From the IMG/VR virus record IMGVR_UViG_2877251553_000001, positions 10,207-74,206 of that record: DNA of 64,000 nt; one strand, given 5' to 3'. This DNA comes from a virus (Duplodnaviria; Heunggongvirae; Uroviricota; Caudoviricetes). This document shows positions 1-62,787 of this stretch, in pieces. The position numbers and the translations under genes were made by a program. Position 1 is the first letter of the stretch. Every line of letters begins with the position of its first letter. The notes below the pieces were generated by a model. That model saw only the letters and a list, made by a program, of their open reading frames with translations. It was not told the DNA's origin and made no database searches.

Positions 1-465
1 GAAGACAACGCGCTGGCGCATGACTGGTCAGAACGTCTTGCGGAGCTTAAAGGTGCTGCCTTTGGTAATCCCCCATACAGCCGCGCCAGTCAGCATGAGG
101 GGCAATACATCACCGGCATGCGTTACATCATGAAACATGCCAGTGCTATGCGTGATAAAGGCGGGCGCTATGTTTTCCTGATCAAAGCTGCCACCAGCGA
201 AGTGTGGTGGCCGGAAGATGCAGACCATATTGCTTTTATTCGCGGGCGTATTGGTTTTGAACTGCCTGCCTGGTTTATCCCGAAAGACGAGAAGCAGGTG
301 CCGACAGGTGCTTTCTTCGCTGGTGCTATTGCTGTTTTCGATAAGACCTGGAAGGGACCGGCAATCAGCTACATCGGGCGCGATGAACTTGAGGCATGTG
401 GTGAGGCGTTTCTGGCGCAGGTTCGCCAGCAGGCAGAACGGCTGGTCAGGGAGATAGTGGCATGA
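1..465 (+). CDS. Phage DNA N6-adenine methyltransferase (Dam-like), 5' partial at window edge
   Basis: Open frame from position 1; near-identical to the full copy at 59614-60267; lambdoid nin-region context. Confidence 0.7.
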   Translation, partial: EDNALAHDWSERLAELKGAAFGNPPYSRASQHEGQYITGMRYIMKHASAMRDKGGRYVFLIKAATSEVWWPEDADHIAFIRGRIGFELPAWFIPKDEKQVPTGAFFAGAIAVFDKTWKGPAISYIGRDELEACGEAFLAQVRQQAERLVREIVA

Positions 466-851
466 AGCTGATCCTGCCTTTTCCGCCCAGCGTGAACACG
501 TACTGGCGACACCCCAACAAAGGGGCGTTTGCAGGTAAGAGCCTGATAAGCGCGGCGGGGCGAAAATTTCAGAGCGCGGCGTGCGCAGCAATAGTTGAAC
601 AGTTACGTCGTCTGCCGAAACCAACGTCGGCACCTGCTTCAGTGGAGATCGTGTTGTTTCCACCGGATAACCGGATCCGCGATCTGGACAACTATAACAA
701 GGCGCTGTTTGACGCCCTGACCCACGCGGGTGTGTGGGAAGACGACAGCCAGGTGAAAAGAATGCTGGTGGAGTGGGGACCGGTTATCCCGGAAGGGAAG
801 GTCGAGATCACTATCAGTAAGTACGAGAAAACGGCGGGTGCAGCCGCCTGA
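462..851 (+). CDS. rusA: Holliday junction resolvase RusA
   Basis: 129-aa ORF with RusA-like N-terminus (LPFPPSVNTYW) and acidic catalytic region; ATGA overlap with upstream gene. Confidence 0.85.
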   Translation: MKLILPFPPSVNTYWRHPNKGAFAGKSLISAAGRKFQSAACAAIVEQLRRLPKPTSAPASVEIVLFPPDNRIRDLDNYNKALFDALTHAGVWEDDSQVKRMLVEWGPVIPEGKVEITISKYEKTAGAAA

Positions 852-870
852 TCAAGAGGAGAAACGAAGT

Positions 871-1668
871 ATGAATAATCTGATGGTCATTGATGGTATT
901 GAAGTTCGTCGTGATGCTTATGGGCGTTACAGCCTGAACGATCTGCACAGGGCTGCCGGTTCTCTGGATAAGCATAAGCCTGCATTCTGGCTCCGCAATG
1001 AGCAAACTGAACGTTTAATAAGCGAGTTGCAGATTTGCAACTCGGTCAATATAGAGCCAGTTAACGTTATTCGTGGCGGAAATAACCAGGGGACGTATGT
1101 CTGCAAAGAACTGGTGTATGCCTATGCAATGTGGATCAGCCCGTCATTCCATCTGAAGGTGATCCGTACTTTCGATATGGTAACCAGCGCATCGGAAAAA
1201 TTATCCGGGCAGGCTGCTGACAAGATGCAGGCTGGCGTGATTCTGCTGGACTTTATGCGCCGGGAGTTAAATCTGTCTAACTCATCTGTGCTTGGGGCCT
1301 GTCAGAAACTCCAGGAGGCTGTTGGCTTACCGAATCTGGCACCGCGCTATGCCATTGATGCACCTGCTGACGCGCCTGATGGCTCAAGCCGCCCGACGCT
1401 GTCGCTGAGTGCACTGCTGAAGCAGTATGGTATCCGCCTGACGGCTAATCAGGCATATCACCAGATGGCGAAGCTGGGGATCGTTGAACAACGCGAACGA
1501 TACAGCCGTACCGCGATTAACAACATCAAAAAATTCTGGTCGCTGACAGCGAAAGGCTGCATGTTCGGCAAGAACATCACCAGTCCCGCAAATCCGCGCG
1601 AGACGCAGCCGCATTTCTTCGAATCCCGATTCCCTGAGCTGTTAAAGCTACTCGATACCGTTCATTGA
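871..1668 (+). CDS. KilA-N domain / antirepressor-like phage protein
   Basis: ORF with GAGGAG ribosome-binding site upstream of ATG at 871; N-terminal KilA-N-like region; copy at 60996-61793. Confidence 0.6.
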   Translation: MNNLMVIDGIEVRRDAYGRYSLNDLHRAAGSLDKHKPAFWLRNEQTERLISELQICNSVNIEPVNVIRGGNNQGTYVCKELVYAYAMWISPSFHLKVIRTFDMVTSASEKLSGQAADKMQAGVILLDFMRRELNLSNSSVLGACQKLQEAVGLPNLAPRYAIDAPADAPDGSSRPTLSLSALLKQYGIRLTANQAYHQMAKLGIVEQRERYSRTAINNIKKFWSLTAKGCMFGKNITSPANPRETQPHFFESRFPELLKLLDTVH

Positions 1669-1669
1669 G

Positions 1670-60590: not shown

Positions 60591-60976
60591 AGCTAATACT
60601 GCCTTTTCCGCCCAGCGTGAACACGTACTGGCGACACCCCAACAAAGGGGCGTTTGCTGGTAAGAGCCTGATAAGCGCAGCGGGGCGCAAATTCCAGAGC
60701 GCGGCGTGTGCAGCAATAGTTGAGCAGTTACGTCGTCTGCCAAAACCAACGTCGGCACCTGCTTCAGTGGAGATCGTGTTGTTTCCTCCGGATAACCGGA
60801 TCCGCGATCTGAACAACTATAACAAGGCGCTGTTTGACGCCCTGACCCACGCGGGTGTGTGGGAAGACGACAGTCAGGTGAAAAGAATGCTGGTGGAGTG
60901 GGGACCGGTTATCCCGGAAGGGAAGGTCGAGATCACTATCAGTAAGTACGAGAAACCGGCGGGTGCAGCAGCCTGA
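60587..60976 (+). CDS. rusA: Holliday junction resolvase RusA (prophage 2 copy)
   Basis: Near-identical to 462-851. Confidence 0.85.
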   Translation: MKLILPFPPSVNTYWRHPNKGAFAGKSLISAAGRKFQSAACAAIVEQLRRLPKPTSAPASVEIVLFPPDNRIRDLNNYNKALFDALTHAGVWEDDSQVKRMLVEWGPVIPEGKVEITISKYEKPAGAAA

Positions 60977-60995
60977 TTAAGAGGAGAAACGAAGT

Positions 60996-61793
60996 ATGAA
61001 TAATCTGATGGTTATTGATGGAATTGAAGTTCGTCGTGATGCTTATGGGCGTTACAGCCTGAACGATCTGCACAGGGCTGCTGGTTCTCTGGATAAGCAT
61101 AAGCCTGCATTCTGGCTCCGCAATGAGCAAACTGAACGTTTAATAAGCGAGTTGCAGATTTGCAACTCGGTCAATATAGAACCAGTTAACGTTATTCGTG
61201 GCGGAAATAACCAAGGGACGTATGTCTGCAAAGAACTGGTGTATGCCTATGCAATGTGGATCAGCCCGTCATTCCATCTGAAGGTGATCCGTACTTTCGA
61301 CATGGTAACCAGTGCACCGGAAAAATTATCCGGACAGACTGCTGACAAGATGCAGGCTGGTGTGATTCTGCTGGACTTTATGCGCCGGGAATTAAACCTG
61401 TCTAACTCTTCAGTGCTTGGAGCCTGTCAGAAACTCCAGGAGGCTGTTGGCTTACCGAATCTGGCACCGCGCTATGCCATTGATGCTCCTGCTGACGCGC
61501 CTGATGGCTCAAGCCGCCCCACGCTGTCACTGAGTGCACTGCTGAAGCAGTATGGTATCCGCCTTACGGCTAATCAGGCATATCACCAGATGGCGAAGCT
61601 GGGGATCGTCGAACAGCGCGAACGATACAGCCGTACAGCGATTAACAACATCAAAAAATTCTGGTCGCTGACAGCGAAAGGCTGCATGTTCGGCAAGAAT
61701 ATCACCAGTCCCGCAAATCCGCGTGAGACGCAGCCGCATTTCTTCGAATCCCGATTCCCTGAGCTGTTAAAGCTGCTCGATACCGTTCATTGA
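60996..61793 (+). CDS. KilA-N domain / antirepressor-like protein (prophage 2 copy)
   Basis: Near-identical to 871-1668. Confidence 0.6.
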   Translation: MNNLMVIDGIEVRRDAYGRYSLNDLHRAAGSLDKHKPAFWLRNEQTERLISELQICNSVNIEPVNVIRGGNNQGTYVCKELVYAYAMWISPSFHLKVIRTFDMVTSAPEKLSGQTADKMQAGVILLDFMRRELNLSNSSVLGACQKLQEAVGLPNLAPRYAIDAPADAPDGSSRPTLSLSALLKQYGIRLTANQAYHQMAKLGIVEQRERYSRTAINNIKKFWSLTAKGCMFGKNITSPANPRETQPHFFESRFPELLKLLDTVH

Positions 61794-61794
61794 G

Positions 61795-62787
61795 GTGACC
61801 GTGAGAGCACTACTGCCCCTGAAATTGCCCCGCGTATGGGGATCGTATTGTTCAGACCAAGTTCAGAGCTGATGCCCCTGTTTATGCAGGGGCGTGTCCT
61901 GCTGGAGCCTGAGCCGGAACGTTATTCATCTTTCGCCAGTGGTGCTGTTCCGGCGGCATCACAACCGCTGGCGGATGATCCTGACGTTCGGGCCGTGTTC
62001 CGCAATGAGGCAGTGATCCGTCGTGCTGGTGGCGTGGAATGTCTTGAAAGCTGGTTACTTCGTGAAAAAGGCTGCCAGTGGCCTCATTCCGACTGGCACA
62101 GCGAGAACATGACAACAATGCGACACGCGCCGGCGCAATCCGTCTGTGCTGGCACTGCGATAACCAGCTGCGCGATCAGTTCACGGAACGGCTGGAATCA
62201 ATGGCAACGGATAACTGTGCCCGCTGGGTGTTGTCTGTTGTGCGTCGGGATCTCGGTTTTGATGATAGTCACGTTGTGACAATGCCGGAACTGTGCTGGT
62301 GGCTGATTCGTAATGACCTGGCGGATGCCTTACCGGAAAGTGCAGCCCGTAAGGCACTGAGATTACCGAAGCCTGTTGTGCCGTCTGTCACCCGGGAAAG
62401 TGACCTTGTGCCTTCGGTTCCTGCCACCAGCATCATCCAGGATAAGGTGAAAAAGGTGCTGGCGCTGAAAGTGGATCCGGAGTCGCCGGAGTCTTTTATG
62501 TTACGCCCAAAACGTCGCCGCTGGGTTAATGAAAAGTACACACGCTGGGTTAAGACACAGCCGTGTGCATGTTGTGGAAAGCCTGCTGATGATCCCCTCC
62601 ACCTGATAGGCCACGGTCAGGGGGAATGGGTACAAAAGCGCATGACCTCTTTGTGTTGCCTTTGTGCAGAAAGCATCACGACGAGCTGCATGCGGATACC
62701 GTGGCATTTGAAGAGAAGTATGGTTCCCAGCTGGAGCTGATATTTCGTTTTATCGATCGTGCGCTGGCAATAGGCGTACTGGCGTAA
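61795..62787 (+). pseudogene. DUF968-family gene (prophage 2 copy), at least two frame disruptions
   Basis: Aligns to intact copy 1670-2665; breaks near 62130 and 62600. Confidence 0.6.

Follow-up and report, generated by a model that had tools for sequence, protein, structure and literature searches.

The nin-region module and its two copies

The 64,000-nt stretch of the IMG/VR virus record IMGVR_UViG_2877251553_000001 analyzed here (positions 10,207 to 74,206 of that record; hereafter the window) carries, close to its two ends and in direct orientation, two copies of a nin-region module of lambdoid prophages. The module consists of genes for a Dam-type N6-adenine methyltransferase, the Holliday-junction resolvase RusA, a KilA-N domain protein and a DUF968 protein. 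Pfam searches detect all four domains in both copies (Dam PF05869, RusA PF05866, KilA-N PF04383, DUF968 PF06147), which bears out the gene content proposed in the initial annotation of this DNA, and the gene content and order of both copies match those of annotated Escherichia coli prophages. As judged by comparison with other E. coli genomes, the copies are two functional alleles of a widely circulating block that appear to derive neither from a duplication nor from an exchange between these two loci.

Copy 1 and the adjoining Q gene:
1..2665, + strand: copy 1 of the shared module (Dam 3' part, RusA, KilA-N, DUF968; alignment and Pfam)
1..465, + strand: Dam-type N6-adenine methyltransferase (PF05869, E = 6e-25), C-terminal 154 aa only, start to the left of the window
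462..851, + strand: RusA Holliday-junction resolvase (Pfam PF05866)
871..1668, + strand: KilA-N domain protein (PF04383), 265 aa from ATG
1676..2665, + strand: DUF968 protein, intact (PF06147, E = 6e-79; weak HNHc_6 match)
2668..3030, + strand: Q antiterminator of prophage 1, PF06530 type

Copy 2 and the adjoining Q gene:
59803..62787, + strand: copy 2 of the shared module, including the LexA-like cassette (alignment and Pfam)
59614..60267, + strand: Dam-type methyltransferase, complete, 217 aa (PF05869, E = 1e-45)
60264..60590, + strand: LexA DNA-binding-domain-only protein, 108 aa, in copy 2 only (PF01726, E = 3e-19)
60587..60976, + strand: RusA (Pfam)
60996..61793, + strand: KilA-N domain protein (Pfam)
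61801..62787, + strand: DUF968 gene with three 1-bp deletions (about 61816, 62132 and 62620)
62801..63553, + strand: Q antiterminator of the remnant, 250 aa, PF03589 type

In copy 1, the ATG of the RusA gene overlaps the Dam stop codon (ATGA) and no LexA-like gene lies in between. This junction is also present in other E. coli genomes, where it is recovered as a single BLAST piece, and in the relatives L003, L007, L008 and L010 (the L-numbered relatives are loci of public assemblies; L002 is ECONIH4, L010 is GCA_043934775.1 and L012 is Z1323HEC0422). In copy 2, the LexA-like gene forms a clean cassette, its start and its stop each overlapping a neighboring gene in ATGA. The encoded protein can be aligned to E. 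coli LexA structures over their residues 2-90 (E about 1e-15), and no S24 peptidase domain was found in it by domain and structure comparison. The presence of the LexA-like gene in copy 2 only and the different types of the two Q genes, both reported in the initial annotation, are thus confirmed by the Pfam assignments listed above.

The DUF968 protein of copy 1 combines an Orf-like N-terminal part with a C-terminal HNH-type zinc finger. DUF968 proteins have been described as remotely related to Orf (NinB), the recombination mediator of lambda, and as bearing a fused HNH zinc finger (PMC4118853); this kinship fits a nin-region block of DNA-metabolism genes. The deletions in the DUF968 gene of copy 2 set it apart from copy 1 and from every relative examined; as assembled, this gene reads as a pseudogene, which is either true or the result of homopolymer sequencing error. 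PADLOC yielded no strong match among the module genes; marginal local matches were obtained for the KilA-N protein (PDC-S22, E = 3e-06) and the LexA-like protein (CARF model, E = 4e-04).

The genomic neighborhoods of the copies are distinct. Copy 1 is followed by Q, two reverse-strand open reading frames (ORFs), an N6/N4 methyltransferase gene and the genes for holin, lysozyme and Rz, and its upstream genes can be read only in the sequence-identical relative L010. Copy 2 is located downstream of a truncated replication gene of the HTH_36 type and a PerC gene, and upstream of Q.

Extent and divergence of the repeat

Self-comparison of the window with BLAST yields two co-linear direct matches, 1-465 with 59803-60267 (96.1%) and 462-2661 with 60587-62783 (96.6%), at E = 0. 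A gapped pairwise alignment of the two copies comprises 2669 aligned bases with 92 mismatches, i.e., 96.55% identity, in the following blocks, all in direct orientation:

1-461 = 59803-60263
462-1690 = 60587-61815
1692-2007 = 61816-62131
2009-2499 = 62132-62622
2501-2665 = 62623-62787

Chance does not explain a similarity of this degree between the copies. The blocks are separated by an extra 323-bp segment in copy 2 (60264-60586) and by three single-base deletions in copy 2, opposite copy 1 positions 1691, 2008 and 2500. The initial annotation described a near-identical module of ~2.9 kb, repeated in direct orientation. The orientation and the high identity stand (the value is not well below 90%), with "96.5% identical" being the better wording, and the coordinates hold except for the start of copy 2, which is 59803 instead of 59806, a shift of 3 bases. 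The length requires a qualification: the right limit of homology is the DUF968 stop codon (2665 and 62787, respectively), beyond which the sequences are unrelated, and the first base of the window already lies within the Dam gene of copy 1, so that the left end of copy 1 is cut off by the window edge. Copy 2 is homologous to L010 from window position 59049 on, 755 bp upstream of the counterpart of position 1. Given that copy 1 is identical to L010, the repeat would extend ~755 bp further to the left, and its full length is probably roughly 3.4 kb, the visible 2.7-2.9 kb being a lower bound.

The mismatches are scattered over the whole block at 1-10 per 100 bp. The identical tracts between the copies measure 134 (the longest), 129, 98, 92, 86, 85, 81 and 77 bp. 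Among the codons that differ between the copies, 72 changes are synonymous and 14 are nonsynonymous.

Relatives and origin of the two copies

Identities over the RusA-to-DUF968 block were compared in a matrix: copy 1 equals L003, L007 and L010 (100%), copy 2 reaches 99.05% with ECONIH4, and the identity between the two copies is 96.64%, a value within the 96-98% range observed between prophages of unrelated genomes. Thus, the copies are not each other's closest relatives. The block was detected in 2752 of the 5426 complete E. coli genomes (51%), at 3842 places and up to five times per genome, so that carrying it twice is common; the exact KilA-N protein of copy 1 is present on 89 blocks of public assemblies. 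The closest relatives of both copies outside the window, together with the scattered mismatches and the mostly synonymous changes, suggest that the copies are two independently acquired alleles.

Alternatively, the shared block could have arisen by recent recombination, or by gene conversion, between the two resident elements. The homology indeed stops sharply at gene boundaries, and phage and host recombinases are known to perform such exchanges (PMC3945230). However, the 92 mismatches are evenly scattered, the longest identical tract spans only 134 bp, and for each copy there is an outside allele closer than the other copy. Moreover, the same sharp boundaries are found in many unrelated genomes and hence are older than this strain. 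We therefore consider such an exchange very improbable; of the recombined shared module proposed in the initial annotation, the sharing stands, whereas recombination between these particular copies finds no support.

The direct orientation of the copies on one DNA stretch and the frameshifts of copy 2 as assembled could also point to an in situ segmental duplication of the nin region of one prophage, followed by divergence and decay. A divergence of 3.4%, mostly synonymous, is however far too great for one strain to have accumulated, the sequences on either side are dissimilar (in the Q family and in the LexA cassette that is present in one copy), and each copy is found intact, with its own flanks, in other genomes. 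These observations leave a duplication extremely improbable.

The reading as independently acquired alleles also accommodates the mosaic structure of the block. Three combinations of cassettes are found among the relatives: Dam, LexA and RusA; Dam and RusA; and LexA and RusA without Dam. The last of these is seen in L005 (9269-9981), where the LexA-like gene and RusA come immediately after PerC and Dam is absent; Dam and the LexA-like gene are thus independent presence/absence cassettes. The E. coli prophage block Dam - LexA family regulator - RusA - KilA-N - DUF968 - Q, as in Z0117EC0098 and ECONIH4, has the same gene order and domains, at 96-99% DNA identity. Copy 2 corresponds to the full form of this block, but its DUF968 and PerC genes are frameshifted as assembled; copy 1 differs from it by the lack of the LexA-like cassette, a variant known in other genomes.

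The phenomenon as such is well known and unremarkable: it is a textbook observation that E. coli and Shigella genomes hold intact and defective lambdoid prophages with modules in common, and such sharing is recognized as a cause of phage mosaicism and of genome rearrangement. Published surveys show that mosaicism between temperate and defective E. coli phages is common, the median identity being about 95-96% (De Paepe et al., 2014; PMC3945230). The case described here resembles these mosaics in that a segment of ~95-97% identity is bounded at gene junctions and surrounded by unrelated flanks, in that one partner is intact and the other one defective, and in that the segment is a possible substrate for RecA or phage recombinases. 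It differs from them in the length of the segment (2.7-3.4 kb, compared with a median of about 400-500 bp) and in that no exchange is evident between these two particular copies.

The elements that carry the copies

Copy 2 is part of a 5.1-kb remnant enclosed between two insertion sequence (IS) elements:

58557..63691, + strand: lambdoid prophage remnant, 5.1 kb, 98.3% identical to E. coli ECONIH4 over exactly that span
56189..58556, + strand: IS66-family element, left boundary of the remnant (Pfam HTH_Tnp_1, TnpB_IS66, DDE_Tnp_IS66)
63692..64000, - strand: IS1 variant, right boundary of the remnant, cut by the window end, 91% identical to IS1A

The genes of the remnant follow in the order 5'-truncated replication gene (HTH_36), PerC (frameshifted at about 59396), Dam, LexA-like gene, RusA, KilA-N, DUF968, Q and a terminator, and the homology to ECONIH4 opens inside the replication gene and closes just past the terminator downstream of Q. 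The exact 60-nt junction between the IS66-family element and the remnant had no matches in the collection of species-representative genomes. Accordingly, of the two lambdoid prophages recognized in the initial annotation, both are lambdoid in origin but the second is only this remnant.

Copy 1, by contrast with the remnant, appears to belong to a full-length lambdoid prophage (prophage 1) at the tRNA-Thr gene thrW; its completeness and integration site we infer from the relatives. The late part of prophage 1 in the window includes the terminase, portal, capsid and tail genes and the tail fibers. A draft E. coli contig (L010) has 0 substitutions relative to window positions 1-11664, and its left flank consists of an integrase, an S24 repressor, a replication gene, PerC and Dam. 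L003, L006, L007 and L008 adjoin a gene of the aldehyde-dehydrogenase family (417 aa), and in L003 an intact thrW lies between this gene and the integrase; in L012, thrW is annotated beside proA. The end of prophage 1 and the adjacent region are marked by the following features:

38437..38482, + strand: 3' 46 nt of the tRNA-Thr gene thrW (thrW match), attR of prophage 1 and attL of the P4-like island
38648-39862: integrase of the P4-like island (integrase domains)
45643-46890 and 49781-52342: inverted pair of IS3-family elements, 99.4-99.9% identity
52905..53393, + strand: C-terminal fragment of a thrW-type lambdoid integrase, 98.4% identical to the integrase beside proA-thrW in L003

The partial thrW belongs to an exact 106-nt match of the window to thrW plus flank in L012, comprising the last 46 nt of the gene and 60 nt up to the P4-like integrase. 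When further partial copies of thrW were sought as att marks, this was the only one found at a length of at least 12 nt.

The region from 31 to 58 kb holds IS3-, IS110- and IS66-family elements along with pieces of a P4-like island (Ash, AntA, PRiA4). The second member of the inverted IS3-family pair has in turn been disrupted by a further IS3-family element (50683-51989). Between the two members, the segment 46891-49780, with Ash and AntA, lies inverted relative to the island integrase, as expected from recombination between the IS3-family copies.

Within the block 52905-56052, the integrase fragment abuts the distal end of the P4-like island (a hypothetical protein and a PRiA4 ORF-3 family protein). 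The junction resembles a preserved ancestral att junction, and the fragment is probably the leftover left end of an older prophage. This block is inverted relative to the island integrase and to copy 2, and no obvious partner repeat was found to explain the inversion.

Proposed serial integration at thrW

Taken together, we propose that the window represents an integration hot spot at thrW where mobile elements would have accumulated successively and were then scrambled by IS elements, and that the two copies of the module are independently acquired nin-region alleles; we consider this explanation as a whole highly probable. Under this scenario, the left element would be the full-length lambdoid prophage 1, with its left end beyond the window and attR at 38437-38482, the middle element an older P4-like island, apparently broken and partly inverted by IS3-, IS66- and IS110-family elements, and the right element the 5.1-kb remnant of another lambdoid prophage between the IS66-family element and IS1. 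Both lambdoid elements bear one conserved nin-region block between the replication genes and Q, with the protein consisting of the LexA DNA-binding domain as an optional component. This block appears to circulate in the lambdoid phage pool of E. coli as 96-98% identical alleles under purifying selection, and its boundaries at gene junctions (the DUF968 stop codon and the ATGA overlaps of the LexA cassette) would reflect the usual modular mosaicism of phages.

There is a documented precedent for such an array: the phages SfI and SfX of Shigella flexneri integrate in tandem at thrW next to proA (PMC3306764). As in the SfI/SfX array, a partial thrW lies between two elements, the integrase is of the proA-thrW type and the elements are stacked serially. 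Unlike the latter, the array described here would consist of a lambdoid prophage, a P4-like island and a remnant, is heavily rearranged by IS elements, and has its intact thrW outside the window.

Several observations weigh against this scenario. The relatives in the identity matrix were picked via a protein identical to the KilA-N protein of copy 1 and thus represent a biased sample. The left end of the element carrying copy 1 lies outside the window, as does the intact thrW, so that relatives have to stand in for both the completeness of prophage 1 and its site. The integrase fragment is inverted relative to copy 2, and it is by interpretation that the two are assigned to the same prophage. 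Finally, when simple IS-mediated inversions were tried for all block orientations at 40-58 kb, only a partial account was obtained.

The overall arrangement of the window was not found in any of the 5426 complete E. coli genomes, none of which holds >80% of either window end in one place. This raises the question of an assembly artefact, i.e., a single-copy region placed twice or window ends misjoined via IS repeats. The abundance of IS copies at 31-58 kb, including the 99.9% identical inverted pair, offers classic sites of misjoining, and the assembly contains systematic homopolymer errors. Nevertheless, the 92 differing positions and the 323-bp cassette show that the copies are not one locus placed twice, and each copy runs on without a break into flanks matching those of other genomes over 5-12 kb, so that an artefact is quite improbable. 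By the same token, the risk of assembly collapse suggested in the initial annotation is not borne out: the copies differ by the mismatches and the cassette indel, a divergence sufficient for easy assembly and for telling them apart, and both are resolved with independently corroborated flanks.

Potential for recombination between the copies

It has been shown that exact pairing over 31-34 bp is needed by RecA and over 23-27 bp by Red-beta (PMC3945230). The copies have the same orientation and share many identical tracts that exceed these minima, the longest being 134 bp, so that a crossover mediated by RecA or a phage recombinase would be possible in principle, and to this extent the initial description of the repeat as a substrate for deletion stands. 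If it occurred, a single crossover would delete about 59.8-60.1 kb, given the spacing as assembled. With such a deletion, prophage 1 would lose its late genes, the defence genes and the island would disappear as well, and what is left would be a defective, hybrid prophage.

The LexA cassette, with homology of at least 461 bp to its left and 2.2 kb to its right, could enter the intact prophage by a double crossover inside the block. It is tempting to speculate that the IS-bounded remnant, as a resident reservoir, may supply the intact thrW prophage with alternative cassettes, although we regard this as unlikely. Were it the case, a double crossover in the 3.4-kb block upon induction would install in the phage a gene that encodes the LexA DNA-binding domain only. 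The product, devoid of the self-cleaving domain, could be a non-cleavable LexA mimic, and this putative mimic could change the SOS response or prophage induction in new hosts. Beyond annotation, the repeat has little significance. In practical terms, the second copy is located in a small IS-bounded remnant and not in a second full prophage.

Homopolymer losses and apparent pseudogenes

The visible quality problem of this assembly is homopolymer under-calling, not repeat collapse. Compared with L010 over 11.7 kb, the sole differences of the window are four single-G losses in G runs. Against three other relatives, over 11.4-26 kb, the consistent indels are again single-G losses, and beyond 32 kb the window is short by single bases in both C runs and G runs. 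The gpL tail protein is very widespread (2762 blocks), and these loci were reused for the indel analysis. Altogether, the window is one base shorter than its close relatives in G/C homopolymer runs of 3-8 bases, at the following positions:

G-run losses: 6095, 7251, 8206, 9590, 11932, 14102, 15175, 24781
G- or C-run losses: 32571, 32939, 33611, 35328, 39940, 40266, 40317

Among the genes split by single-base losses are the large terminase, the capsid fusion gene, J and DUF6387. The single-base deletions in the region of copy 2 (59396, 61816, 62132 and 62620) also fall within G/C-rich runs; for two of them, the change is a simple contraction of a G run. These losses look like a sequencing or assembly error mode, and their coincidence with homopolymer runs suggests that the apparent pseudogenes are likely, at least in part, homopolymer sequencing errors. 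Before the frameshifts in DUF968 of copy 2 and in the large terminase, capsid and J genes of prophage 1 are read as signs of decay, they need checking.

Other features of prophage 1

The right arm of prophage 1 carries defence cargo at 32907-36773, between the tail-fiber assembly gene and attR:

within 32907-36773: PD-T4-3 GIY-YIG defence protein (PADLOC, E = 5e-105), apparently N-terminally shortened
34050-35564 and 35559-36773: C5 methylase and endonuclease, respectively, of an EcoRII-type restriction-modification pair

An IS3-family element (30786-32111) is inserted near the 3' end of the side tail-fiber gene of prophage 1 and splits it from the tail-fiber assembly gene (32327-32845).

The two ORFs that follow Q occupy the classic moron position between Q and the lysis genes:

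3059-4387, - strand: two ORFs of 160 and 273 aa, guanine-plus-cytosine content about 42%

Neither ORF had a Pfam match above the curated threshold (for the 160-aa ORF, weak sub-threshold matches only) or a PADLOC match. Both ORFs also occur together in the relatives L003, L007 and L010.

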